NCBI RefSeq assembly: GCF_006345805.1
Contig: NW_021832228.1
Span: 124,001 to 188,000 of the forward strand
Source of the DNA: Octopus sinensis
Taxonomy: Eukaryota
Length of the DNA: 64,000 bases
Direction: 5' to 3'
In this document: positions 2,991 to 49,330 of the stretch, in pieces
Layout of the letters: every line of letters begins with the position of its first letter
Position numbering within the stretch: the stretch's first letter is position 1
Notes under the pieces: generated by a model
Databases searched by the model: none
Told to the model about the DNA's origin: nothing
What the model saw: only the letters and a program-made list of their open reading frames with translations
Position numbers and translations under genes: made by a program

Positions 2991-5910
2991 ATGTCTAAAA
3001 CGTACCTGAAACGCTTGGAGGAGATAAAAATTACATCATTTAATGTTAGAGGGATCAGTAAGGAATGGAAAAGAAACTTGTTATGCTCGGATCTAGCGAA
3101 GTACGGTACGACCGTGGGATGTCTGCAGGAGACCAAAGTACAAACTGGATTGGATGAGTTACATGGGGACTACAGGCTTATTTTACTGCCATCGACATAA
3201 AGGCACTATGGACAGGGGTTTGCCGTGCACAGGAAGCTTACACGTGGGATATTTCGGTGCTGGAGTGTTTCCGATAGAATCAGTGTCCTTCAAATTCGGG
3301 TCGGTGTCAAACGCACGTCGAAGACCCTCATTTCCATAATCAACGTATATGCACCTCATAGTGGACGGGTCGCCAAAGATTCGGACGAACTAGACTTCTT
3401 CTACATGCAGCTCTCGGGAACATTTGCCGAACTGGAATCGTCATTTCTAGTTTTCGTTGCAGGAGACTGGAATGCTAAAGCGGGAATACGTCGAGAAAAT
3501 GAAACCACTATCGGAAGACACGGAAGAGGGATAAGGAACCTCCCCGGGGCCATGCTGGTTAACTTCTGCCGGGCGTTTGGTCTATTTCTGTGTAATACTG
3601 CGTTTGCACACGCTGCACGACACAAGTCCACCTGGACAGGCTGCCGTAGAAACGAGTCTGGAGACCTCGTACCGATTTACAATCAGATTGACTACATTCT
3701 TTGCAAACAGAAAGACAGAACACTACTACGGGATTCGAGGTCTTACGGAGGGGCCACCTTGGAAAGTGATCACAAGATCGTCGCTGCCCTGTTTGATATT
3801 AGAAGTCGTTTTGTACGCACTTCAGGAGCGAAGTCTCATGAGGTCAAACGACGAGGATACCTAGTTGAGAGATTATACTCTTCACATTCCACTCGAAATA
3901 TCTATCAAGATTCTATGGAACATTATCTACAAGCAATAGAGAGAGACCTTCCTCCAGGAGTCATCTGGACGCATGCAGAGGAAGGAATTCACCTGACTGC
4001 AGATGCTCACATTGGGAGACGACCGTACGATGTAAAGACCAATGCCATCCCGATGTCCTTGCAATGGCTGCAAAACAGAAGGCTCTCCGACTCTCGCTAG
4101 AGAACACAACGGATATGGTCAGAAAACTTTCCTTACAATCGGAACGCACCAGGATACAGAAAATGATCAAAAAGTTAAATAGCGAACACATGCAAACGTT
4201 TTGGATGCCAGGCTAAAAGAAGTGGAGAATCTAAAGGATTGTGCACAGATGTTCTTAGCAATGAGGTTGCTTAAGAGGAAGAAGCAAAAGATTAAACTAA
4301 AGATCGAGGACAACAACGGAAATATAATTTTTGATACTACGGAACAAGCAGAACTTATTGCTACTCATTTTGAGCGACTTTTTAATGTTGACGGGGAAAA
4401 GGTGGACCTAATCACTACTAATCCGGTAAACCTGGTAAATGAAATCACGGTGGAAGAAGTTATGAAAGCAACGAATAGACTGAAAAGTAATCGCTCTCCG
4501 GGATCGGATGGTATAAGTGCTGAGTTACTGAAATACGGTCCTAAAACACTGATGGAAATCATGGCCAAAGTACTAAACAAAATGTTTACAACCAATGACC
4601 TCCTTCCTTTGGGCAAAGGAATTCTGGTCCCGATTCAAAAACCGAATAAGAAGATGGGCTCTGTGGATAACCTGCGACCAGTCATTCTACTCAATAAGCT
4701 GAGAAAGGTCCTCGCTCTCATAATGCTAGACCGTATACAAGAGCCTGCGAACGAATTCCTGTCTTCGAACCACAGTGGGTTCAGGACGGGTAGATCTACT
4801 GCTGATGTGATCTGGAGACACAGGTGGCGTTGCGCTACTTGCCGAAGATTCGAGAGAGCGACTACAATTCTAGGGATCGACATGTCGAGAGCCTTCGACA
4901 CAATTTGCCGAGGAAAACTTATTAGTGTTTTGCGGGGATTCCTCGACGGGGACTGCGTCAGGATGATAGAAGTCCTATTGTCGAACACGGAATTGACAGT
5001 ACAAATTGGGAGTACGTCATCCAGAAATTTTTCGACGACAGTGGGTACCCCTCAGGGAGACTCCCTTTCCCCTTTGCTGTTCGTGATATACCTGGAGGCG
5101 GCTCTGCGTGATCTCAGGCTCTTTTATAACGGGCAAATCACCGAACTTGTATACGCTGACGATGTGGATTTTGTATCACACGACACAGCAGCCTTGAGGT
5201 GGTTACTTGATGTTGCCCCAGCAGAGCTTGGAAAATGGTTCCTCACTGTGAACACAACCAAAACGGAAATCACGGAAGTCGCACGCATGAGTTCAAGACT
5301 AGATGATGAATGGAGACGTTCCAGAAAACTGGGCACACTCCTCGGAGATAGTGAGGACATTGCCCGGAGGAAAGTACTATCGAGGGCCGCGTTGAACAGG
5401 CTGAAAACGGATTGGGTGGCTAACAGGCCGGTAACGATTGCGCTTCGTTTGCGCCTCTACAATGCATTTGTGAAACCGGTCTTGCTATACTACTCCTTCT
5501 GTTGGGGGATCTCTGCTTCCGAAATTAAAAACCTTAACTCCTTCCACCGAAGACAACTGCGTATATTATGTGGGGTACAATGGCCGACCCGGATCAACAA
5601 CGGGGCACTTTACCGTAAATGCTCAGCGCAACCTGTGATTCTGGATGTGATGGAAGCCCGATGGAGACTGTTCGGACATGTCCTACGGATGGACCAGACG
5701 TTACCCGCAAACTTGGCTATGGAAGAATATTTTGCCGCTAGTGGAAAGAAATTTCGGGGACGCCCGCGCATTACTCTACCGGAGGTGCTGGATGCTGACC
5801 TCAAATCAATCAACCGCAAGCTTAAAAATGGGGATGATCTGGACGCAATGAAAAACTTAGCATGCATTATCGAGAAAATCGTTTCAAGTGCCGCACGTGT
5901 GGAAATATAA
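2991..5910 (+). mobile_element. RTE-clade LINE, near full length (APE endonuclease + RT), disrupted by a stop and frameshifts
   Basis: SFNVRG, CLQETK, GDWNAK, NQIDYI, SDHK endonuclease motifs; QGDSLSP and YADD RT motifs; RLFGHVLRM..GRPR RTE C-terminus. Confidence 0.93.
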
Positions 5911-8529: not shown

Positions 8530-8964
8530 TATTTATTTTATTATTATTATTTAAAGACCAAACACGGGCAAAGCCAGTTAATTATAGTTATTCCCGTGAT
8601 CGCCGATCCAAACGAGGGAGATCCTTCTGAAAGGTTCGATCCTTCCCGCAAGATCGGCCTGAGACGACGATGTCCCAGGGTCTGAGAAGCTAAGAGTCCT
8701 TTTTCGGAAGGCATTAAGTGCCTCCTGAGCGTTGCCATATCTGAAGGAATTTCCAACTGACATGGTGGACCCCGTAACGCCACGCTAAGCCCGGAAGGTA
8801 AGAGATCCCCATTTCCAACTGTGTCGTGCCAGAAGTACTCGTTGCCTCACGGGCAGGGGAACGATAACGAGAATTAGCCCCAGGATGAAAACTGGCCTCC
8901 TTCGGAATCGAACTCACGGCCGTCCAAATCCATTATCCATAGCTTAGTCTTCAGCCAAGGGGGC
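8530..8964 (-). mobile_element. tRNA-derived SINE, copy 2
   Basis: Reverse complement starts GCCCCCTTGGCTGAAGAC..GAGTTCGATTCC; shares TGCCCGTGAGG, CTGGCACGACACAGT, CCGAAAAAGGAC and CCCTGGGACATCGTCGTC with copy 1; (TAA/TAAA)n tail. Confidence 0.8.
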
Positions 8965-9039
8965 AAGTTACAAACTCGTCGTTCTTAATTTAAATTCTTC
9001 TCAATTTAAAACCTCCAATTCACAAAGTCCGGCTCTGAC

Positions 9040-9725
9040 ATTCACGTCGCACTTTGTATTAAATATAAAAATACAACAAAAAACCAAATGTCAACAATAC
9101 GCTGCAAAACCTCATCTCCTGACTGAACTACAAGAATTTTTGAAAAATCCTCGTTTTCTTGGAAATAAAAGTAGAATTCAATATAAGAACAAAAGCCAAT
9201 AAACGGATGCCTGCAATTGGCCAGTTCCACCGAAAATGGACTCGAATGATTACCAAATGTCGGCCATTACTGTATAAAAGTTCAAAGCATCGACAGAATT
9301 CATACATAAACGTTCAGGCTAGTCACATCATCCAATAAAAATACCGCCATATATTTAAAAGTGCCCAATCCAGTTGCCGCAACGAGTTCTATAAAAATCC
9401 GGAAATGCCAAAATCGCATATTTTGACTGAACCCTCCAAATTGAATAAAATATTGGCAGGTTTTATGTCTACAGCAGATTTCCTTCAACATTCTGATTTC
9501 TGTGCATTATATTCTTTGATTTCAGATAAACCAGTCCGGAGGAGACCTTAAATATCAGCACATATTTGGGTACAGCGTAGGCCACACAGGACAGGACTCT
9601 GGTCGGGACTTTCAACTGGTATTTGTGTAGAATACACCCAAAACTGGAGTTCGTTGGTTCCATAAATATCAGTAAAAAGTCCTAAATTAGTCTTCTAGTA
9701 CATATTGGGGTAATTCCCACACCTG
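9040..9725 (-). pseudogene. MAP kinase kinase (STE7/MAP2K family), 5'-truncated, with micro-introns
   Basis: Exons read LIFMEP.., GLVYLKSKNIMHR / DIKPANILFNLEGSVKICDFGISGFL*, GTFKYMA / PERL, ADIW, VELANCRHPF; one splice donor lost and a premature TAG. Confidence 0.85.
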
Positions 9726-10833
9726 CCTGGTTCGCCGCCTGATTGATGCAGTAGTCATCAATGCAGCATTCAGTCACATTCTTGACATTCACATTCACAT
9801 AGGTAACAAGAACACCGTATAGACCAGTCTTATTCACCATGTACGCTCGAGCAAAATCAGCCCTTAAAGGGACTAAGCTGCTCAAGTCTGCATTTGTTAC
9901 CTCTCCTCCAGCCAATATTGCATTTTTGGTTATTCGACAGGATAGGTAACTTATCCTCTCAGTCACACTTAACCCTTCACTCCTCATCTTCCATTCACGA
10001 CTTATAGACCTCGGTTTATGTTGGCATATTCCTTTGCAGTCACCTTTCTCTTTTCGGATCATTACACCCTCGACTGAGATCCAGTAATATCTCCCGCAAT
10101 AAATAGCACAACATTCCTGGTCGAAAGTCAAAACAGACTTCCATTTGGTTGCATATTTTCCCTCCCCCAATGATGCTAGCCATATCTCCACCCCCTCGAC
10201 ACACACATCTTTGTGGCTTAACACGAAGGCACCCTTATTGTCTTTCAACAAGCAGAAGCTCCCTGAGCATTCGTTCGACTCAAATATATCACCCTCTATC
10301 TTCCCGCTCAAAGGATCCACCGGGTAACTAACAGGATGTATCAAAGTGGCGTTCACGCAATCTGACTCATACTTAGGCCATATGCATGACACTTGTGGAT
10401 AGGACACTAGGTTTTCACCTTTGTCAACTTGCCCGGACCTGTACATGTCGATTGCTCTCTTACAGACTTCGGGACTTGGCTTTTTAAAGTTGTGCCAGCT
10501 CTTTTTTACAATTGGCTCCCACAACGCAAAGGGGTAATTGCAGCTTGAGCATAAAGTCATCTCAGTACACACATGTCCGTAAGCTCTTGGCTTCAAGTGC
10601 GCGTCTTGAATGAAGTGGTATTTTTCGAAGTTGGACTCTACAGTTGTATCGAAGGACTGAACGATAGAACAGTCTAGCTCATGTGGGTCGAGCAAGCGAA
10701 AGTGATCATTTGGTCCGATGGAGGGTAGTCGTACAATTGACTCAGTTTCTCCACTTTCTTGGAGCTTTGAAAGATGGACAAGGCAAATAACAACCATTGC
10801 GATATTTATCTTCGCTTTATATATGTTTCTCAT
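9682..10833 (-). CDS. Rhabdovirus-like glycoprotein G (endogenous viral element); ectodomain only, no TM anchor
   Basis: Intronless 383 aa with N-terminal hydrophobic signal; Cys spacing HELDC, GHVC..LCSSC, PSPEVC, YPQVSCIW, HPVSYPVDPLSG, NECSGSFC, CAIYCG, YLSC parallels vesiculovirus G (GWMC..VTTC, PSVEQC, FPPQSC, PHHVLVDEYTG, GKCSNYIC). Confidence 0.85.
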   Translation of the reverse strand: MRNIYKAKINIAMVVICLVHLSKLQESGETESIVRLPSIGPNDHFRLLDPHELDCSIVQSFDTTVESNFEKYHFIQDAHLKPRAYGHVCTEMTLCSSCNYPFALWEPIVKKSWHNFKKPSPEVCKRAIDMYRSGQVDKGENLVSYPQVSCIWPKYESDCVNATLIHPVSYPVDPLSGKIEGDIFESNECSGSFCLLKDNKGAFVLSHKDVCVEGVEIWLASLGEGKYATKWKSVLTFDQECCAIYCGRYYWISVEGVMIRKEKGDCKGICQHKPRSISREWKMRSEGLSVTERISYLSCRITKNAILAGGEVTNADLSSLVPLRADFARAYMVNKTGLYGVLVTYVNVNVKNVTECCIDDYCINQAANQAGVGITPICTRRLI

Positions 10834-10855
10834 TTTTCTTTTGTGTTGTAGTTTT

Positions 10856-10880
10856 TATATCCTGTTTTTTTGACTCTCTG
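10856..10880 (-). promoter_or_regulatory. Putative rhabdoviral gene-end/gene-start junction (GAGAGTC-A7-CAGGATAT)
   Basis: Exactly seven A (10865-10871), overlapping AACAG, about 30 nt upstream of the G ATG and about 55 nt after the upstream ORF stop. Confidence 0.55.
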
Positions 10881-10928
10881 TATTAGCCGGCGAGTTTAAG
10901 AGGTTAATCGAATCAAGTGTTTTATGGC

Positions 10929-11162
10929 CTAATAACAAGAGGGATCAAGATCACACCTTATACTGGATTGCTTGATAGTTGAGTTGTCTAGCCCTGCAAC
11001 CAACTCCTCAGAATGCAATTTCCCAAGGACAACATTCACTCCGGATAATAAATATTCCTGAAATGATAAATTCCTTGTGGCTACGTGGGTTTGAGATGGG
11101 AGATGAAGCACCAACTTGACAGAGCCGTTGTGCCCCGAGTCTTTAATGTCGTATTTGAATGT
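10929..11162 (-). pseudogene. Probable 3' part of the upstream viral gene (matrix-protein position)
   Basis: Open frame of about 77 codons TFKYDIKDSGHNGSVKLVLHL...DPSCY*, intronless, same strand, directly before the A7 junction; identity inferred from position only. Confidence 0.4.
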
Positions 11163-11879
11163 CTATATAGTGTATAACAAGCACAACTACTGAAGGGAAT
11201 TTTAAAAAGTAGTCGGCTAGATAATTCAACATGTGGAAAAATTTTAAACTTATTTATTACAAAAATTTTAATTTTCAAAATAGATTTAATTATTTAATTT
11301 ATTTTAAAAATCAGCAAGTCCCATTTTTTAGAACATAAAGAATTAAAAAACCAATTATTGTAATTAATCTTATATTATAAAAATTTAGGAATTACTAAAA
11401 TATTTTAATATATTTTATTTAAAATAAATTTAAAATATAACATGTGAATTTGCCTTGCACATGACTTCAGAATTGACTGTTTCCCAATTAAATCAAGTTC
11501 ATTTTAATTAAAAAAACTAAAAAGTTTGCCGAACTGATGCGAGGATTCAACCGAATGACTTTGACATGCTTCAAAAACTGTGTGATTTCATTTACAACTT
11601 CGTCTGCTACTGGAAAAGAGGTGAGTAAAGTCGTATTTATTTAGACGACGTGCGTAAACATGTGCTTTGACAAATTATTGAATGCAAATCAGAGAATTTC
11701 AATGGGATTTCAGGAATATAACTTGAGTAATGCAGGCACTTGATTTATCCTTATATTCTTTCGTAAATAAATTTATGAATTTATTCTTTGCTAAGTGATG
11801 GAAATTGTAAGATCACAATTTTAAAACAAAGTCTCAATTCGTTTTATAAAGACGAGGCCATTTTGAATATACAATCAAA

Positions 11880-12723
11880 ATAGTATTCATTTTGAAAGAC
11901 GGAACGAGACCAATTCTACGCTGGTTGAATAAGGGCTACCCCTAGGACCTAAAAAATCATTAATTTTGGACTGTCTAGTCTTCTGGCAAAGCCGTAGGAC
12001 GCTTTTTTCTAGTTCATATAAGTTTTTTCAGAATCTTTTTTCTATATCGGAATCTTTTTTCTCCCCATAAATGCGTTTAAATGATATTTTGTTTCTTTCT
12101 TTCCAACGCTGAAGCCAACCTGAAGTAGGAATAAAGTCATCCATTTTCATTGTTTTAGCAAAGCTAGTAGGCTTTGTGGGTTATTATGTTACCAATTATT
12201 GGTACATTTTTGGTCCTGGTTTGAGCAAACCAAACGGACAATGCAGTTTCTACGTTCTTTTCTTTCCCATCGCGTCGTCTTTTTCGACTCAAATTGGTGC
12301 AATTAGATTCAGCCAATAGCATAATTTCTTCTCTATTCTTCAAAATCCGTGAGACTTGAGACTGAGAACAGTTGAATCTTGTAGATAGAGCTGATTGAGT
12401 TTGACCTCCTTGAATAAACAAATTGATTATTTCCAATTTTTGAGAAAGTGTAAGATCACGACGTAACGAAGATGACATGTGTAATAATAATTAAATTTTA
12501 AAATTACAAATTATAATTATGCAATTATGCGAAAATTTTTATACGAAAAAATAGTAAATGTTCCCAATGAGAGTATGCAATTAACCGAATTATGCAATTA
12601 ACCGATATGCAATTAGCCGATATTTTTTCAATGAAAACCATATAAGTTATGGTTTTAAACATGAATTTATGCCATTAACCGATTTATGCAATTAACCGAT
12701 ATGCAATTAACCGATGTTTACTG
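11880..12723 (-). mobile_element. Tigger/pogo element 5' part (psq HTH + CENP-B HTH)
   Basis: ORF 12164-12478 LTLSQKLEII..SQSQVSRILKNREEI; FIPTSGWLQRWK; terminus ..ACTG|TA at 12723; about 6 ATGCAATTAACCGA subterminal repeats. Confidence 0.88.
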
Positions 12724-13419
12724 TATACAAATTTTAGTTTGTTGCCGAAGTACAAAACGTTCCGTCCGTTTATAAACATTCAATGCGAAATTTATTTTGA
12801 AAGGTTTATAATGTGCTTCCAAATTGATGAATCACTGCCAATATCATATTTATTTCTATCTTCAAGTGTAGACTACTTGGAGACGAGAATGCTTGATTTA
12901 TGCTAGAGTATGTCCATATCTATTTAATAGCCTAGTAGTGATTCTGAGTGGCAGTTGTTTGCCGGAACTTTCACATTGACCACTGTGAGTGCCTTCTGAT
13001 GTTAAGATATTAAGAAATGGCACAAATATTAACATTCTTTCTTCTAATACTAATATTCAATTGTGTAATTAATTTAGCCATTTCCGTTATTGAATTCTTT
13101 GTCCGTTAATTCGGTTTTTTTCCAAAGTTCAATTTTTTGCCTAAATTTTTATTCAAACCTTTCTACGCATTTAAGTTAGCGACTTCGTCCAAGATACCCG
13201 AACATAGTGGATTAGTGTATTCCAAAGGAACTTAATCATCAGTATTGCTAAAACCACCAGACGACCAAGGCTATGTGCCGACTGAGTAATTTTTATATTA
13301 TTTATACAAGCTTGCAATGAGTCAAATGTGGGGACAACGTGATATGCTGAGATATCAGGAAATGACACAAATATGACCATTCTTTGGTCAGTAAGAAGGA
13401 AAATGTTAATGGACAGTTC

Positions 13420-14685
13420 TCCCATGTCTTGAAGACTCTGCTTTAAACTCTGTGAAAGATATTTAAGGAAGAGATGGGCGGATCCCTTGTCGACGACTGT
13501 GCCGGACACCCCCTGAGCCACTTTAATGGAGGACCCGTGGCTACGATGAGTAATACCCCAACCATAGATATCGAGCCTGGACATCCTTGGTCAACTCCAT
13601 GGCATCGAGTGACCCCATTCCGCGATAAGGCCTCACTTTGACGTCGTTGATGAGGACAGTCTCCACGGGGGATTCGGAGGTGGCAGCAAACATGGATCCC
13701 ATCATGACTAGTGCATGTGGCTGAATGGGGCACCTGTGGAGGCTCCCAGGGCAATTGCCTTGGCGATGTGTCCCGGGGACTGGACTCCCCCATCGGCAAT
13801 GACTGGCACTCCGAATTGTCTGGCCAACTGACTGAGTGGTACACAGCACTGGCCTGTCCTTGACCAACAGCCATGACTGGGGGATTAGTGGGTGACTGAC
13901 CTTCCTGGGTGATACAAATAGATCCCGACCCCATCCTACTCGCAGACCATCCACGCCTGCATTGATGAGGTTGATGGTCTGGGAGGCAGTCACCACTGTT
14001 CTATTGCCACAATGTTTTAACAATTTCCTCCTCCTTACCCTCCACTTGCGGGTAGTTCTGCTTTATGAACTTGACCATTTCTAATTGAAAAACCGAGTTG
14101 CCTTTGGAGGAGTCCTTCATTGGTCAATTAGTGCCACATACCACCACAATTACATCCACTTGTGCCTCCACTAGCAGAACCACTCTTTCACGGTCACACT
14201 CACGAGTGCTCACGGCGGCCCCACACATCAATTGATTTTTATTAGTCATATTCATTATCGACTACCTTTGGTCCACCACTGAGTTGGGGAATTCACAGTT
14301 TTTTATTATGTCTTTTCTGGTGACCAGTGCAACCAGACAGTACTCTTTTTCCACGATTGGCAGTTTTCCTTTCTTTAAATTTCGGAGGGTCTTGTAGGCG
14401 TCTTGGAAATTGATTCCGTCGTTAGAAGTGACCAATGACTCTCCGGGGTCATCACCTGCAGTGACAAGTCGAGGCAAACCACTTCCATCCTCGTCTGGTC
14501 GGACACACAGAACAAATCAATGTCCCGTTGAGGCACCAGGCCCAACAACCGTCCATTCAGTGTCACCGAAAAGCCAGAAAAGCCATGTTTATTGACCAGG
14601 ATTTTGTATTCTGCCACAGTAGTGCTGGGGGAGACGACAACTGGGTTCATAATGAAGCCCTGTTTAGAGGATTTGACTAGTCGGG
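13420..14685 (-). pseudogene. IMPDH: Inosine-5'-monophosphate dehydrogenase, truncated and frameshifted
   Basis: KQGFIMNPVV CBS region, KKGKLPIV, DSSKGNSVFQ, DGLRVG/MGSGSICITQE catalytic loop, [34 protein letters not shown]. Confidence 0.92.
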
Positions 14686-14699
14686 GGGACGGAAAAAGG

Positions 14700-14960
14700 C
14701 CACACTCTCCATGGAAGAATTTTGGATATCAGCAATGTCGATGTTTGGAGTCGTTTTGTATGTTGTAGTTGGTGGATGCGAAAATGGTGGAGCAAGGACA
14801 TGTTCTTGTGATTTCGTTTAATGCGCAACAAGTGATGGGTGTGGTGGACAAATCGAATAAATTGGTGGAGGGAGATATGGTCGTGTGTGATGTATTAAAG
14901 AGAATAGGAACAAGCACGTTTGGGCTTTATGTAGGAATCAGAGTTCTCTCGATCCTATGA
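14700..14960 (+). pseudogene. Possible S1-domain (RRP5-like) fragment
   Basis: KLVEGDMVVCDVLK..TFGLYV weakly resembles S1 repeats. Confidence 0.25.
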
Positions 14961-16719: not shown

Positions 16720-18580
16720 AAAATGACTTTTTTGACGTGTACATGGACTGTAAAAAGGATTATTTTAAAAATATTGATGAAGTAGTGGATAATGTAATAA
16801 CATGATTGCTTATATATTTAGATATACCAAAAATTGAAGTGTATTTTTTCTATTCGATTTATCAAATTGACATTACCTTCATCTTTTGAAAGTAGTCAGC
16901 TATACTCATACTTTGGAGTATAACTCGGTTTTAATCAAAAACAGATTGAACGTGAATTAAAAATATATTTCATGTCACAAGATATTAAAACTTTTAATAA
17001 AACATGTATTTTGGAAGATAAGATTACTGCTAAAATTTTAACATTTAAGAATCGCCAATTTATGAGTAATTTTGAAATTAACTTCATAGATTTAATTAAC
17101 ACAAATATAGGGGAAATAAAGCAAAAATATAATGTAATGATATTGTTTTAATATCGAGAAAGATTTACAACGTCCTAAATGTTGGCAAAATTAAACTTTC
17201 TGAAGGATGCCAAGTTATAGCACATGTATTCCCAAATTGTAAGGAATATTTTGTAAACGTTTTATTGAAACTCATTCTAAAAAACGATTTCAAATCCGTC
17301 AAGTTTATGAGAAATGTATTTGGAGTTGATTTTAAAACTCTTTGATTTTAAAATCCAGTAAACCGCTCCTGAATGTTGCTGCGAGTAAAGGATTAAAAGT
17401 ATTTTGACTATAAAGTTGTTATTTTTGGATATAATCAGAACACTCCTCGAAGGAGGGGCTTTAGTCGATTTGTATGACTGTAATGGAAACAGTCCTCTTC
17501 ACTGTGCTCTCAATGCAAAACAATACTCAGCAGCAGAGGTTGAAAATGTACCTATTTTCAGATATTAGTAGAATGGGGGCATCACTAAGTATTCCAGATC
17601 GGCACGGGCGTACTCCTTTAGAACTGTTTCCTTCATCAGTTTTAGCAGAAAGTTAGGAAATTTACATACATTTTTAATTTATAAAAAATCATAGCCAAAT
17701 CGACAATTGACTTAACGAAATTATATTCACCTGATTCTCTGCTTGAAATTATATTCACCTGATTCTCTGCACGAAATTATATTCACCTGATTGGTAGGAA
17801 AATGATAACAAATTTGAACACGAGGTTTTTTAATTAAAATGAACTTTGAATAGAATTCAAGGAATTACGACACTACTACATCTGGCTGTGTCGATTGATT
17901 CTGAGGACTGCGTCAAAACTTTACTAAATCTTGGTGCTAATGTTGACATGGTTGATAAAAACAGGCAAAATGTTCTTTATGAAGTTAAATCTACAGCAGT
18001 CCTAAAGGTATTTTAAAAGAACTCGATAAACCAAATAATTATAAGCAAACAAATCAATAGAAATGAAAGAGACTACGATGGAAATACACCTCTTCATTGG
18101 TTTGCTTGTCGAAAGGGAGAAAATACGTCTAAGCTTGTCAATCTTCTATTGGAAGACGGTTATGATATAGCTGCAAGAAATGCTGAGGTTTGATTAGGGT
18201 GTAATTCAAGTCAATGTTACCCATCCATGTTTCTGCATTAAACGGTTGTGAGGCTCTATGTTTGACGTTTTTGGATCACGACAAAAACTCAATCTTTAAA
18301 GCAATATCAAACGAGGATCAAAGAAACCCAAAGAGTCTTTTATTTTATTCAATAATTGGAGGTCACATTTCTTGTGTAAAAATGTACTCGAACAGACTAT
18401 TATGCGATAGGTTACAAGAACATGGTTTTTGTTTTAAGGAAGACGAGCTAAGAATACTTCTTTGTATGGCTTCGGCAAACGAAATAAAATGGCTGATTTG
18501 TCTAATTTTACATTTCAGTAATGATATATTTGAAGTTATGGAATATCTATTGGGAGAAGGTGCGGATCCAATGAGTAGTG
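16720..18580 (+). pseudogene. Ankyrin-repeat protein, multi-exon, partly degraded
   Basis: DCNGNSPLHCA, DRHGRTPLEL, TLHLAVS..VKTLLNLGANVD, DYDGNTPLHW, LPIHVSALNG, EYLLGEGADP; 5' boundary uncertain. Confidence 0.75.
17717..17792. repeat. 28-bp tandem repeat, about 2.7 copies
   Basis: GAAATTATATTCACCTGATT(CTCTGC) at 17717, 17745 and 17773. Confidence 0.9.
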
Positions 18581-18584
18581 AGAG

Positions 18585-19590
18585 TAGTGTTGGATTCCTC
18601 AGTTCTGGGATGTTCAAAATTGGGGAATTGGTTCAAATCGAGTACAATTTAGTGTTTCATTGGTAGACCGCAGGTTGTGGGGGTTATAACTCGACTGGAA
18701 CGTCAAAACTTTGTGATTCTTAATTAGTTCGAAAAGGTGGATTTTCAGAGGTGATTTTAGATTGTTAAGAAAAAGAACAATTCGATAACAGTGAGGAAAG
18801 TGAGTGCCAATGCAGTGACTTTTTACTCGGATAACCAGGCAATAACAGTGGCCAGTTCGGTCAAAGTCATCAAAGGGCCTTTGGAAGTAAGTATATTACG
18901 TAATCAGTAGAATGAGACGGGAACAGTTACAACAGTTACATGTATATACAAGAATTATGTGTTTGTCAAGTCATCCAGTCTGCAACATAATTCTGGGTTA
19001 TTTGTGGTGGTTAGACGGAATCTGCGTCGATTGGATGGTAGTGAGTGTTAGTCGGGGGTTGGACAGTGAGGCACGGAGGAATGCAGTCGAGGGTAAACTG
19101 GGTGGTTTTGGGTCTCCATTCCCGATGGCTTCGCCAATGCACTACGCCACCGCATCTACCAAAGTAGGGTCTTAGAGGAATGTGAGGGATCGTCGTCTTA
19201 TCGGGAATGCCGTCATGATCATTAAAGGACCACTGAAAGGGAATATTGGTATCATTAAGGACGCGAGTGAAAAGACTGCACAAGTTGAGCTTCACTGTAG
19301 TTGTCGTACCATCAATGTGGATCGTGGCAATTTAATGGCCATTCGTGCTGCTAATGATAACTCCTATGATTTGTCCACACAAGAAGGCAAAACGTTGTCG
19401 ATTACTCCCACTGTGAGCAATATTCCTGTCCCTGTGGGGGGAAGGACTCCTTTATATCCGCAGACCCCGTCCTACCCCGAGATTCCGGCATATCCGCAGA
19501 CACCATCTTACCCACAAACACCGATGATAGAGACAGAGGGAGGAGCAACCCCTCATCATTTGATGGAGGAGGGCATGTCTAATTCGTATT
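18585..19590 (+). pseudogene. SUPT5H: SPT5 transcription elongation factor fragment (KOW domains + CTR repeats)
   Basis: GELVQI, VGVITRLERQNF, VKVIKGP, RDRRLIGNAVMIIKGPLKGNIGIIKDASEKTAQVELH, GGRTPLYPQTPSY; NGN domain absent; in-frame stop near 18725. Confidence 0.88.
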
Positions 19591-19839
19591 GGCTGTGTAT
19601 GTTAATTTGTAGAGTTCAGTCGAGTCCTGCTACATTTGGGAGAATTAATTGGCAGTCCCCATTGGATACTCCATGTTTGTGTTTTGTAATATTGTTGTAG
19701 CTCATCTACTATTTGCTCAAGACTTTGACACCTTATTCTACTGTGTCGGTCTCGTGGTGGCTGCTTCCACCAATAAGTCGTTCATTGATTGCGTGATTCG
19801 CCGCCATTAAATTGTCTTAGTCGAATTTCACAGAGAAGA

Positions 19840-29799: not shown

Positions 29800-31947
29800 C
29801 AGTGTTTCTCAACCTTTTTTTCCCTGAGGCCCATTTTCAGGGTCATATAAAATCTCAGGCCCATTGCCTTTAATAAAACTTTGATTAACAAAAAAGTATT
29901 TTTATTAACATAAAAAATCTTATTAAAATGTCAATGACTACACTGCTCTTGATGTCTATCTATCAATTTGTCAAGTTGAATTTCCAGATCTTGGTTCAAC
30001 CTCAAACGTAAGTCTCCTCTCTTCTCAATCTGCAATTGATTGCGTTTTTTTGTGAGTAAATCGTTTGTTGCAGAAAATCCTATCTCAACCAACCAAGTGG
30101 TGGGAAAGCCAAGTACAAACGGAACAACTTTTTCAAAGAGTAATGGATGAATCGATTCTACTTTCATCCATCCATATAAGCCATCCCTTTCAATATTTTT
30201 CATTAATACTTTGTTCTCCTTCAGTTCAAGAAGTTCTCCAGCAATAATAGGATCAATGTCTTTTTCACTTAATACGTCAAAATGTGCTATATCTATAATC
30301 CAACTAGGCGGATTCATTTCGATGATATCTTTAAATCTTCTAGTCATATCTTCTTTCAAGCATTTCAAGTGGTCAGTGCAGCTTGCGATTACTTCTGAGC
30401 TCGGAGCAGTTTTGGCAAAATTACAAAAATAAGCAAATTCATTTTTTTGAAGATGCATCTTCCAGAGACATAACTTGTTCAAAAAAGAGCGTACTTTCTC
30501 AGCACTATCTATCAGATTAGCATTTCGCCCTTGCAGTGTCATGTTCAGTTGGTTGACATGTGCGAATAAGTCAGCCAGGTAAAAAATCCTTGCTTTTGTA
30601 TCGTTGTTATTTATCACTGAAAACAAAGTCTCAGCTTTATCTTTCTGCTTCTTGCTACAAGCTTGTGTTTTCATGTCATGAACAAAAATAAGAACCATAT
30701 CCCACATTTCAGCAAGACGAACTAGGGAATTTCCTTTGGAAAGCCATCTCACTTCAGTGTGCATGAGGAGTCTCTGGTGGTCCTCATGTTCACATAAATG
30801 TTGAAATAGGCGGTCATGCAAAGCATTGGCTTTGACAAAATTCACTGTTGAAACAGCGACTTTCAATGCATGTTCCATGTCATCATTGAGAGATTTAGCA
30901 CAAAGATGTTCTCGATGGATGATGCAATGAATTGCCAATATATGAGGGGCAACTTTTTTTAATTTAGCTACAAAGCCATTCTGTTTGCCGGTCATAGCGC
31001 TGGCACCGTCTGTTGCAATCTGCAACAGATTTGACAGAGGGATCCCATTATCGTACAGATAGTCGTAAACAGCCGCATATATAGTGTCGCTTCGTGTGTC
31101 AATCAACTTTTTTATAAATAACATTTCTTCATGAATTGCCATTGCATCAATATATCGGACATAAGTAAGTAATAAGGCAGAATTGTTGATTGTTGTCTCA
31201 TGTCTCACACAAGCTGTTTCTCGAGGTTTTCTGCCATTTCAATTTGCCTTCTCTTCACTGTGTCATTAGACAATGGGATTTTTTGTAGAATGTTGGCAGC
31301 CTGTTCTCCTAGCAGTTCTTTAGCACAGATCAACATTGCTGGCTTCACCAGACGTTCTGCAATTGTATGTGGCTTCCCCACCTTAGCAACCAGTTCACTC
31401 ACTGCATAACTGACTTTTAGTGTCTTGTTATTATGCTCATTTGCTTTTTTTAAGCAGAATTCTAAAGTTTTTGGAGCATTCTTTTGGCGTAACTCCACTT
31501 TCTTCCTGAAATAGCTGCGCTCCTTTCCAACAGAAGCAGGATGCTTCAACTGTTGATGGGCGAACAATTTTGATTTCTTCATGGAAACATTTGTCATTAC
31601 TAAGCCACAGTCCACACATTCAGGCCTCTTAGAATCAGCACTTGATGGGATGAAGCCTAGTAATAAAAAATCAGTCTGGTATTTGCGTGTAGTCTTCCTT
31701 TTTTCCTTGTGTACTTTTGACATGAACTATACAATCAGGCCTATAATATTTAAATTTAAATATGACAATATCATTAAATTAAAAACAAATCAAATCAATT
31801 TGAAAATAATAACGAATAAAGATTTATTAGTATTAGTATTAACATATTTTCTTTGAGGCCCACTCCAGGCCCAATTAAATCTTCAGGCCCATTTCAAAAT
31901 TTCTCAGGCCCACAAGTGGGCCTGGGGCCCAACGTTGAGAAACACTG
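29800..31947 (-). mobile_element. Near-complete hAT (Buster / ZBED5-SCAND3-like) transposon
   Basis: TIRs CAGTGTTTCTCAAC; 8-bp TSD ATTTAGGA (29792-29799, 31948-31955); ORFs 31205-31723 and 29931-31208 with ATDGASAM, HCIIHRE, HTEVRWLSKG, TTWLVEIGFS; AGGCCC subterminal repeats. Confidence 0.95.
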
Positions 31948-46216: not shown

Positions 46217-49200
46217 GCACGTTGTTGCTGTTGTTGTTCATTTCATTCTCTCTTTCAATTTTTTGTTCTTTGTTTTCTTTCTCTTTTCACTTCTTTTCAA
46301 TCTTTTTTCGTTCTATCTAACCCACTCTCTTTCATCTCATTCTTTCTTTCCTATCTCATCTTACTTTATATCTCTCTATCCCCATGTCATTTTGTTTTTC
46401 TTGTAAATCTGTTAATTCTCGCAAAACTGGTCGCTCCTGCGCCTCTTGCAGTCAGTTTTTCCACCTCTCGTGTGTTAAACTCACTAAACGTGATTCGGCG
46501 TCAATCCTTTCTTGGAAGTGCCCCTCATGCCTCCCACACACGTGGATCCCTAAGCCTTCTCCCCACCCGGCGCCCATCCCGCCTGACAAGTTTCTGTCGC
46601 TTCTTTCCGAATCCCGAAGCCTCCGCGTAATCCCTGCAAGAATTCCCAAATCTGCGCGAATCTGCGTTGCTGATACGCTATCCGACATAATCGATCAGTC
46701 CCTTAAAAGCAATCTTCCAGAAACTTGGTGCAAACTATTTTCGTTTCCTTCTGTTTGTCTGGGAGCTGCCCCTCGTAAAACGGAGTCAGTAAATAGGACA
46801 TCGGCCGCTCAGCAGATTAAAGACCGCTGCAGTTCGTTCATAAAGGCACCCTTCGACTTATCATGGATCACGCCAGATCGCCCCTCGACCGCGAAATCTC
46901 GCGGGCCTCTTAAACAAGACGAAGGGGTACGCTTAGCCCGGTCAGTTAACAGCAAACTAATGCAGGGAGATGTCTCTGCTGCTGTTCATTTTATTTCATC
47001 CACGGCATCCATTGCCCCGCATACTGATTCCGTTCTGAATTCACTCCAGTTGAAACATCCTCCCGCTCCACCTGATATCCGTGAACCCCCTCACATAGCC
47101 AAAACCGAACGAATTGTTTCCTCCAGTGACGTGTTAGCCTGCCTTGGATCATTTCCACCGAGCAGTAGCGGGGGAGTAGATGGCCTAAAGCCGATACACC
47201 TAAAGGATCTTGTCGCGCCCATGACAGGGGAATCTGGTGCACGCCTCCTGTCCTCGATTGCATCCTTGTGCAGCAGAATTGTCTCTGGAAATATCCCATC
47301 TTTTGCACGCGATTTACTGTTCTCGGCCAAACTGACGGCACTTAATAAAAGTGATGGGGGCATCAGACCCATCGCTGTGGGAAACACATTCAGGAGTCTC
47401 TCTGCAAAAATTATCCTCAGTGTTGTCCTCCCTGATTTGAGCTCTCAGCTGCTGCCACATCAGTTCGGTGTCGGTGTTCGCGGTGCTTGTGAGGCTTCTG
47501 CCCATGGGGTGAGGGAGTTGGTCATCAATGGCAATCCAAAAATCCCATATCTTGTTAAGCTGGACGTGCGCAACGCTTTTAACAGTGTTCGCAGAGACCA
47601 CATCCTGGAAGTTGTGCACACCCGCTGCCCGGCACTCTACCCAATTGTCCATCTATCTTATGCGCGTTCCTCGAATCTCCTTTTTGGAAAAAATCTGTTG
47701 TCCTCAGCGTCTGGGGTTCAGCAAGGGGACCCATTGGGACCTCTCCTATTTGCCCTCGCAGTGGACCTTATTGCTCAAAGGCTTTTGTGCCCGTTAAATT
47801 TCTGGTATCTCGACGATGTCACCTTAGGTGGCTCGCTTGAAAATATTCATAACGACGTTGCTGATATTATTTCGGGTTTTAGCCAAATTGGCTTATCCCT
47901 TAATGGCTCCAAGTCGGAATTTACCCTGCTTTCCCTCGATCATTCTTTATTTTATCCTGCCTTCACGTCCCTGTCCGAGAAAGTTGTCGGTCTCTCTGCG
48001 ACAGACCCGGACGATCTGGTCATCCTTGGTTCACCAATCTCTGGTCGAGGTATTTCCGCCGCCATTGAGCGTAAAAAACGCCAGCTGGCTCAAACACTGG
48101 AGCGTATCTCCCAACTGGGCGCACATGTCGGGCTATTCCTTATAAAGAATTACCTATTCATCCCCCGCCTAACCTACCTATTCCCTCGTCTCCATGCTTT
48201 CGGGAACCAGACCTCTTGTCCGACCTGGACTCCGTAATCTGGAAGTCAGTTGGGAAGCTTCTTAATGTTGACTTTGGCGGGGACCTACTTACCCGCGCAA
48301 TGTTACCCCTCCGTTTCGGAGGCATCGGTATCCGCTCGTGCAAAGACATTTCTATCCCATGCTACCTATCTTCGCTCTCGGTATCAAGAAATTTTGTCAG
48401 TTCTGTTCTTTTTCGCTCCCCTGAACGTTTTGAACTGACTGAATTTTCTTCTGCCCTCGCTGCCTGGACCGCCTCAGGTCTTTCCTTCCCCGTGGAGGAT
48501 CACTTGCAGAGGAGTTGGGACTCCATCCGCTGCAAAGAAGTGGTAAAGTCCCTTAAAGGAAGCGCCGATCAAGTTAAACTCGCATCGTTGAATGCAGCCT
48601 GTCACCCGCATTCTGGAGACTGGTTGAAAGCCATCCCTCTGTCCACCGCTGGTCTCCTCTTGGATGATGAATCGACTCGAATCGGGACCTGTCTTCGTCT
48701 GGGAATTCCCCTTTGCCACCCTCACCGGTGCAAGTGCGGCCACATGATTGGCCCCGATGGTCTCCACCCCCTTTCGTGCCGCTTAAGCACCGGGCGTATC
48801 CCGAGACACGCTGGCCTGAACCACGTCGTCAAACAGGCCCTCAATGCCGCAGGCTTCCTTTCTGTTCTGGAGCCTGCCGGCCTCGACCGTGGCGACGGCA
48901 AGCGTCCAGACGGAATGACAGTCTTTCCATTCTCGGAGGGGAAATGTCTCGTTTGGGACGTTACCTGCGCGGACACCTTTGCCCCCGGGACCGTTGCTCA
49001 GTCTGCGTCCTCCCCCGGCTTCGCTTCCCGTCGGGCTGAGGAGACGAAGCGGAAGAAATACGCCTCTCTCTCACCAAATTACCACTTTGTCCCGATTGCT
49101 GTGGAGACAAGTGGGGTGATAGGGACGGGCGGAGTATCGTTTTGTCCGAAATTAGGAAGCGCATCAACAAGGGCACGAAGGACCACCGCGAAATCAGCTG

Positions 49201-49330
49201 GCTGTACCAGAGGATATCGATCGCAATCTTGCGAGGTAACCCGCTTGCAATCCGAGGTGCAGCCACTGCTGACTCTTAATTAGCTATTTTGGTTAAGTTT
49301 TTTTTCGATTGATTATTTCCATTAAAATTT
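46217..49330 (+). mobile_element. Near full-length CRE-like non-LTR retrotransposon (PHD + RT + CCHC + RLE), two frameshifts
   Basis: N-terminal C4HC3 PHD (CFSC..CASC..FHLSC..WKCPSC); IRPIAVG, KLDVRNAFN, GVQQGDPLGP, WYLDD; CKCG..HPLSC, RH, KRPDG, WDVT, E..K..KY; pyrimidine-rich 5' UTR. Confidence 0.92.

Follow-up and report, generated by a model that had tools for sequence, protein, structure and literature searches.

Fossil fragments of rhabdoviruses are common in animal genomes, and reports on arthropods describe such endogenous viral elements of non-retroviral origin (nrEVEs) as pieces of negative-strand viruses set in repeat-rich DNA, captured several times and mostly present as broken copies (PMC2987831, PMC10689555). 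The rhabdoviruses of parasitic flatworms, which are viruses of a parasite inside another animal, are presented as exogenous, and the sections of that report on their hosts state that they were not found in the host genomes (PMC9241645). Here we describe an element within a 64,000-nucleotide stretch (the window) taken from the Octopus sinensis assembly GCF_006345805.1 (contig NW_021832228.1, positions 124,001 to 188,000, forward strand), in which a fragment of a rhabdovirus glycoprotein (G) gene interrupts a broken kinase gene copy. We give a probability of roughly 0.7 to the reading that this fragment entered recently, as a patch at a DNA break, the genome of an animal with extremely short introns (mini-introns), likely a dicyemid parasite, and that it is likely functionless.

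The open reading frame of G is located at 9682..10833 (minus strand) and codes for 383 aa, made up of 378 viral residues, one mixed codon and four host codons followed by the stop. As claimed by the first-pass annotation, it is free of stops and frameshifts. Pfam recognizes in it the fusion domain Rhabdo_glycop_FD (PF00974, residues 86-189, 10267..10578, minus strand; E 6.4e-8, 33.7 bits with a cut-off of 22) and the central domain Rhabdo_glycop_CD (PF24833, residues 291-366, 9736..9963, minus strand; E 1.1e-7, 32.4 bits with a cut-off of 27.2), the latter being incomplete (profile positions 25-102 of 124). When a profile was built from seven G frames of the assembly alone, all nine matches to solved structures were vesiculovirus or lyssavirus G proteins (best E 6.7e-9). 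A structural model of the protein, obtained from an eight-row alignment (mean predicted local distance difference test, pLDDT, of 55.9), retrieved vesiculo- and lyssavirus G as the top rows of a Foldseek search against the PDB, the E values being 5.8e-14 for VSV (vesicular stomatitis virus) G and only 6.5e-4 for herpes gB. In the viral library the top rows were also rhabdovirus G where named. The global TM-score of these fold matches is low (ca. 0.34), with identities of 12-19%, and the model made from the single sequence reached a pLDDT of only 30.6. These profile and structure searches (Pfam, in-genome profile and Foldseek) bear out the rhabdoviral origin that had been proposed for the frame from its sequence. 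Relatives are otherwise scarce. Among 1.84 billion representatives there were two matches in all, a tick rhabdovirus G (E 6.9e-7, 23% identity), the sole viral one, and a repetitive anemone protein. A phmmer search of the PDB with the single G gave Chandipura G at E 0.072, suggestive only. No G relative came out of word-index protein searches with either the single sequence (0 of 1381 candidates) or alignment A1 (0 of 4130), nor out of single-protein scans of viral and metagenome contigs (0 of 2 and 0 of 55 stretches, respectively).

The protein encoded by this frame is truncated. The transmembrane anchor, which a hydropathy scan finds in the tick virus G and in a sister G on another contig of the assembly (C9340), is absent, the best 19-residue stretch past the N terminus scoring 0.98 versus 2.45 in the sister G; the anchor loss noted in the first-pass annotation is therefore real. 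The profile match spans VSV G residues 4-336 and is followed by some 30 further viral residues, from which we infer a break near VSV G residue 365. In the passages on its structure, VSV G is given a 452-residue ectodomain and a trimerisation domain that ends at 405 (PMC3280520), and therefore the window G does not represent the whole ectodomain. It lacks roughly the last fifth of it besides the anchor and so falls short of a complete soluble spike. Its final viral residues align weakly (E 0.11) with the beginning of the C-terminal frame (197 residues) of the sister G on C9340, and residues 349-383 were modelled poorly (pLDDT <50; ca. 64-88 in the fusion-domain region). The end of the frame (9682..9697, minus strand) is host DNA, namely the 3' half of kinase intron 3, and its TAG stop is the acceptor of that intron; these positions are identical in copies of the kinase that have no insert, as expected if, as had been suggested, the stop is provided by flanking host sequence. 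A viral frame continuing past this stop in another frame was also considered and rejected, since the DNA there is kinase. At the other extreme of the protein, a hydrophobic core (residues 9-19, mean hydropathy 2.96) makes a signal peptide plausible (10753..10833, minus strand), and three N-glycosylation sequons are present. In short, the window G is derived from a rhabdovirus G but is not a functional spike.

The foreign segment as a whole extends over 9698..11038 (minus strand, 1336-1341 nt), as delimited by blastn against insert-free copies, a short-read joint and the junction context. Its left edge is at 9697/9698, and its right edge is ambiguous, anywhere from 11033/11034 to 11038/11039. 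The element had been thought to reach 11165, but the region from 11034/11039 to 11165 is host kinase sequence. A DNA search of the assembly revealed the empty site, with both flanks adjoining and no insert between them, on contigs C1794 (88% identity) and C12637 (94%). With these two as reference, the insert replaced ca. 99-104 nt of host DNA, and most of kinase exon 3 together with the 5' half of intron 3 was lost at insertion. Comparison of the junctions with the same copies showed neither a target-site duplication nor a poly(A) tail. The viral sequence is thus contiguous with host DNA at a site whose empty form can be identified, and the element belongs to the known class of nrEVEs.

The joint 9697->11039 is also present in short-read contigs. 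One of them (run X1) covers 9668-11068 without gaps at a depth of 43 and differs from the window in a single letter, at 10837, outside the reading frame. This position, four bases before the G start codon, has the other letter at full depth in the short-read contig and is probably an assembly error. The sequence is present in one sample only, and no RNA sample was among those listed. Run X3, from the same sample, gave short partial matches and run X2 the insert-free form only, at a depth of ca. 3, and neither was used as evidence. One could argue that viral and host sequences were merely joined by a chimeric assembly with no insertion in any genome, given that two organisms are mixed in the assembly (see below), that a single sample holds the sequence and that the junction overlap in the short-read contigs is 30 letters, the rule requiring 31. 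We consider this hardly credible. The separately assembled read contig contains the entire insert with host letters at both ends, related decayed G pieces lie among host repeats on ten other contigs, and an RNA virus would be unexpected in a DNA library unless integrated (the kind of run was guessed as DNA). The depth of the insert contig (43) can be set beside those of the window-type right flank (83) and of the insert-free joint (132); these figures are not copy numbers and, taken as a hint only, suggest that insert-free twins of the same haplotype exist. The insertion may still be segregating and, its empty site being known, can be dated and genotyped.

The interrupted gene is a kinase with mini-introns, labelled MAP2K-type on the basis of its motifs and presumably MKK4-like. 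Its 5' part, with the upstream region, lies at 11034..11919 (minus strand, start codon near 11232, deletions of ca. 24 and 7 nt) and its 3' part at 8963..9697 (minus strand, with a 19-nt deletion and lost splice sites). The insert-free copy on C1794 gives an intact 306-residue model with nine GT-AG introns of 22-29 nt, against which the damage of the window copy (deletions of 19, 7 and ca. 24 nt, and lost splice sites) is evident. An additional 1-nt deletion in the window copy is not seen in most of the read depth. Altogether, 17 substitutions (in 725 columns) and 3-4 deletions are private to the window copy; some of the substitutions are possibly assembly errors and therefore the decay estimate is an upper bound. 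It is also conceivable that the sample contained several strains or species of the parasite and that the kinase copies are divided among them. The kinase 3' end (window 8963-9257) recurs as fragments of 89-91% identity at seven or more other places, some of them on contigs that also bear rhabdovirus polymerase (L) pieces.

The insert appears to comprise most of a G gene plus 200 nt of sequence upstream. The latter gave no significant match at the other loci compared (best E 0.18) and matched no family. At the 5' end of the insert a 34-codon frame with its stop (10929..11033, minus strand) is in frame with kinase exon 3; it may represent the last part of the viral gene preceding G (M), and it has no family match. 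Between this frame and G, the region 10843..10872 (minus strand) contains an A7 run and an A5-CT-..AACAC motif that resemble the TG-A7-CT-AACA junctions of the element on C9340 but differ from them; although non-canonical, it is a possible remnant of a viral gene junction. Nine query frames revealed no further rhabdovirus pieces in the window or in the 10 kb on either side.

A likely course of events can be proposed. A host reverse transcriptase (RT) would have copied viral RNA; the window has LINE-type (long interspersed nuclear element) frames, and RT frames are located at 4249-5910 and 46384-48237. Should the 200 nt upstream include a gene junction, the template would have exceeded the G mRNA in length. 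The viral cDNA would then have been captured by end joining at a double-strand break. Capture by end joining fits the deletion of the target without duplication or poly(A). The kinase copy would already have decayed before the insertion, and the G frame would be open because little time has elapsed since. In simulations the probability of finding the frame open at the age of the kinase decay was 0.013-0.029 with the local deletion rate, so that the insertion should be either younger than the decay of the host copy or under selection. At a quarter of that age the probability rose to 0.34, so that youth suffices to explain why the frame is open, with no need for selection. The read depths (as a hint), the incompleteness of the ectodomain and the finding that the relatives are partial or broken make youth the probable answer, and co-option of G seems unlikely. 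The proposal of a recent integration that records an unknown rhabdovirus is supported, with the qualification that the host is a second animal hidden in the assembly. Neither this animal nor the mini-intron kinase in the flank could be seen by the first-pass annotation.

An alternative is that the truncated G has been kept and, under the captured kinase promoter, is made and secreted as a decoy that blocks receptors or as a host-interaction protein. The frame is matched base for base by the short-read contig, the protein has a hydrophobic N terminus, three sequons and no anchor, the insert lies in sense orientation behind a host promoter region, and the fusion-domain region is modelled with the pLDDT of ca. 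64-88 mentioned above. However, the frame that runs from the kinase into the virus ends 96 nt ahead of the G start, so that G is a second frame past the stop of this fusion frame, the copy is single, no orthologue is available and the depths hint at insert-free twins of the locus. Residues 349-383 fall below a pLDDT of 50, and the end of the lateral domain, where we take its boundary to be, is missing as well. The stem and the C-terminal part of the trimerisation region (to 405, according to the structural passages of PMC3280520) are also missing. If the kinase promoter still fires, the product would be a downstream frame without anchor or last domain segments and with predicted poor folding. 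A retained secreted ectodomain, one of the two possibilities originally offered, is accordingly weak, given a protein that ends before the end of the trimerisation domain and the insert-free twins, and we see the decoy as very unlikely.

The element has many relatives in the assembly. Searching with G gave 18 matches (35 candidates scored) on 11 contigs of 25-379 kb, none of them chromosome-scale; of the 17 other than the window copy, nine have internal stops and none covers the whole query. The nearest copies (C12699 and C12418, 70% identity) show proportions of non-synonymous differences (pN) of 0.17-0.20 and of synonymous differences (pS) of 0.83-0.92. With synonymous sites saturated and pN at these values, they come from separate viruses and are not duplicates, and the low pN/pS would reflect evolution in the viruses. 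The other G pieces are 20-42% identical to the query, and at least four distinct G lineages can be told apart (20-70% identity among them). The L family has at least 33 matches, four on the chromosome-scale contig C23 and 29 on 15 other contigs. One of these L pieces (L029), unlinked in cis to the window G, matches 6UEB, which we take to be rabies L, at E 1.7e-69 and VSV L at 4.8e-62, the next match being at 5.9e-19; by these values it is far closer to the polymerases of rhabdoviruses than to those of other mononegaviruses. In an L tree (42 rows, midpoint root, no classified reference viruses, three rows filling less than half of the columns), six small-contig L pieces came together in one group (91/82, not starred) divided into three sub-lineages; the 35 database sequences and the C23 piece fell outside it. 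Judging from this divergence, the G and L pieces derive from several distinct viruses. The element on C9340 (L054:4116-9818) is divided by TG-A7-C junctions into four units, the last two being a broken G, with its anchor, and a broken L; neither of the two frames that precede them matches a Pfam family, and upstream no N frame was seen. Elsewhere on this contig there are one more L piece and a G piece that differs from the first. On C12418, the G piece is split by a hAT-like transposon and preceded by a 260-codon frame (L010:464-1243) that matches the nucleocapsid family weakly (PF00945, E 0.056). Pieces of rhabdovirus L and N, all decayed, are also found on chromosome-scale contigs, i.e., in the mollusc (L038-L040 on C23 at 23.14 Mb, and L041 on C9 at 72.7 Mb).

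Of the viral loci on small contigs, 19 were tested, and every one has repeats in common with the window, its neighbours or the contigs of the kinase and SPT5. Among five chromosome-scale controls, four have no such repeats, and in the fifth the common sequence is apparently ribosomal DNA (rDNA) only. The assembly contains two animals, a mollusc and a bilaterian with mini-introns, and the contig of the window (C8699) belongs to the latter. Molluscan haemocyanin is located on chromosome-scale contigs (35 of 37 matches on C5 and C28), and so are 18S genes of ca. 2.6 kb and 64% GC, presumably cephalopod-like. A different 18S, of 1667 nt and 45% GC, lies on the 16.5-kb contig C1618, the two types being 78-84% alike in matching blocks. 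A 588-nt repeat (97.6% identity) is common to this short-18S locus and the window. Beyond the window, C8699 also has ca. 300 nt with 97% identity to the short-18S locus and 74% to the long one, apparently a fragment of parasite rDNA. Both SPT5 and Pax6 exist in two forms in the assembly. The partial SPT5 copy of the window is 94% identical to the mini-intron form on C8595, in which five of six introns measure 21-26 nt (the sixth, 61), and in the kinase all nine are of 22-29 nt. The second Pax6-type gene, on C9061, is interrupted by four introns that, when read by eye, measure 26, 26, 25 and 25 nt, and its paired box is closer to PAX6 (E 2.7e-56) than to PAX5 (6e-46). The second genome is thus spread over small contigs (C8699, C1794, C8595, C9061 and C1618 among them) with its own 18S, SPT5, Pax6 and PIWI-clade genes and introns of 21-29 nt. 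A search for COX1, considering full-length matches alone, detected one type only, in two places of equal score.

This mini-intron animal is very probably a dicyemid. The relevant passages of a study of Dicyema report mini-introns with a mean of 26.2 nt, Pax6 as a gene confined to bilaterians, and a Dicyema Pax6 in which an intron falls close to where the paired domain ends and two more interrupt the homeodomain (PMC2222250), which are the positions found in the C9061 gene. A second Pax6-type gene with mini-introns argues for a bilaterian host. Introns this short are described among animals, in the section of PMC13644364 that deals with them, only for myxobolids (22-27 nt) and Dicyema japonicum. 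The Dicyema genome is summarized as having 36.7% GC, 49% repeats and a mean intron of 38 nt (PMC6736024), and the GC of most 1-kb bins of the window is 27-48%. The size of the 1667-nt 18S gene is also in line with the dicyemid 18S of 1561 nt obtained with universal primers (PMC7710466). The insertion could be real and the host another parasite, for example a myxozoan, since myxobolid introns are equally short; or a mollusc virus could have been taken up by the parasite, rhabdoviruses having been reported from cephalopod transcriptomes (known by title only). The Pax6-type paired box, its Dicyema-like intron positions, the co-assembly with a mollusc and the separate grouping of the six small-contig L pieces from the C23 piece (91/82, not starred) point away from these readings, which we consider together unlikely. 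This is a question separate from whether the insert is an inert fossil, a small-RNA template, a decoy or a chimera.

The second of these roles, a template for antiviral small RNAs in a repeat-rich region (a memory of the PIWI-interacting RNA, piRNA, type), would make the open frame incidental. The window is dense in copies of transposons and gene fragments, several viruses were captured repeatedly, and PIWI-clade genes exist on small contigs (Piwi-like 1 best, E 1.3e-24 versus 6e-13 for Argonaute-2 among solved structures), one of these contigs having a 259-nt repeat (92.7%) in common with the window. Such a mechanism has been proposed for insect nrEVEs (PMC10689555). Our literature search retrieved nothing on piwi in Dicyema. 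The insert is in sense to the kinase promoter, from which no antisense RNA would be made, and the long frames of the window are on both strands. We regard a piRNA role as unlikely.

Several observations weigh against a recent and inert rhabdoviral insertion in a dicyemid. The presence of PIWI-clade genes is one of them. In the ESM Atlas the top-ranked clusters were those of retroviral env (0.95; 32-61% of members with PF00429), at a weak recognition value of 807; we have rejected an env origin because of this weak value and because it is contradicted by Pfam, the in-genome profile and the fold. The short-read contig carries only 30 host letters past each end of the joint, with a bridging rule of 31, and its run is possibly that of the source sample, although ends of 30 letters are what one would expect of a 31-mer contig cut at two branch points. 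With substitutions alone, the simulated probability of an open frame at the age of the kinase decay is 0.31, and six of the 17 private substitutions are absent from the short-read contigs shown (40 of 121 rows) and are perhaps assembly errors. Selection, too, would leave a frame of 378 codons open in a locus that has decayed, and the data do not separate youth from constraint. Finally, shared repeats are the only connection of the Pax6 contig C9061 to the window (194 nt in common with an EVE-bearing contig, 94.8% identical), and the dicyemid assignment is an indirect one.

The rest of the window gives the impression of an assortment of duplicated gene pieces interspersed with transposons. The statement that almost all its other coding remnants are broken holds for the kinase copy around the insert but was exaggerated, as there are open transposon frames of 553, 617 and 403 codons, and host genes look broken partly because of their 21-29-nt introns. 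The long open frames belong to a PHD-RT retroelement (46384-49283), a LINE-type RT (4249-5910) and a transposase (29931-31723) that we take to be hAT-like. An IMPDH copy (13000-14900, minus strand) is frameshifted, apparently with mini-introns, the SPT5 copy (18570-19700, plus strand) is partial and 94% identical to C8595, and a 260-nt repeat is present in two inverted copies that are 77% alike (1631-1889 and 8613-8864).

Since the window copy is probably inert, its value resides in its likely host. The hidden genome, with at least four G lineages and three L sub-lineages, records repeated germline infection and, together with its many relatives, the element would represent a fossil record of the viruses of a little-known parasite group if the host is a dicyemid. 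That dicyemids have a rhabdovirus clade of their own is, taken alone, rather probable; that these 30-cell inhabitants of cephalopod kidneys have in addition turned a captured G at this locus into a secreted, anchorless protein, driven by a hijacked kinase promoter, terminated at an intron acceptor and serving as a decoy against such viruses or acting at the surface of the host kidney, is very unlikely. Rhabdoviruses were reportedly detected in cephalopod transcriptomes in 2023, in a report known by its title only. A dicyemid clade, if true, could account for some of them, and the elements provide marker sequences with which to ask if such viruses are those of the cephalopod or of the parasite in its kidney. 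A further warning is that viral elements and "pseudogenes" on small contigs should not be credited to the mollusc. Judged by title or start of abstract, no paper listed by our open-access literature searches dealt with dicyemid viruses or viral fossils, most subscription papers falling outside their scope, and in the sections concerned of a virome survey of 31 phyla the Dicyemida are named only in its tree (bioRxiv 10.1101/2023.11.03.565523).

Compared with known systems, the window G shares the Pfam fusion and central domains with the class III fusion proteins of VSV (5I2M), Chandipura virus (4D6W) and rabies virus (7U9G), but it is only 12-18% identical to vesiculovirus and lyssavirus G, has no stem, anchor or tail and reaches a TM-score of ca. 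0.34 at a mean pLDDT of 56. Its best database match, the glycoprotein of the Huanggang Rhabd tick virus 1 cluster (P0001/P0003), is full length with an anchor, and 23% identity gives no host or genus assignment. The flatworm viruses resemble the one recorded here in being viruses of a parasite inside another animal (PMC9241645), and the G of the Schistocephalus solidus rhabdovirus is a weak fold match to the window G (rank 36). The arthropod nrEVEs cited at the beginning (PMC2987831, PMC10689555) are alike in being fragments of a negative-strand virus in repeat-rich DNA, with several captures and mostly broken copies, and the present element differs from them in its likely dicyemid host, in its insertion site within a mini-intron kinase and in L relatives that stand apart from the arthropod EVE-like L.

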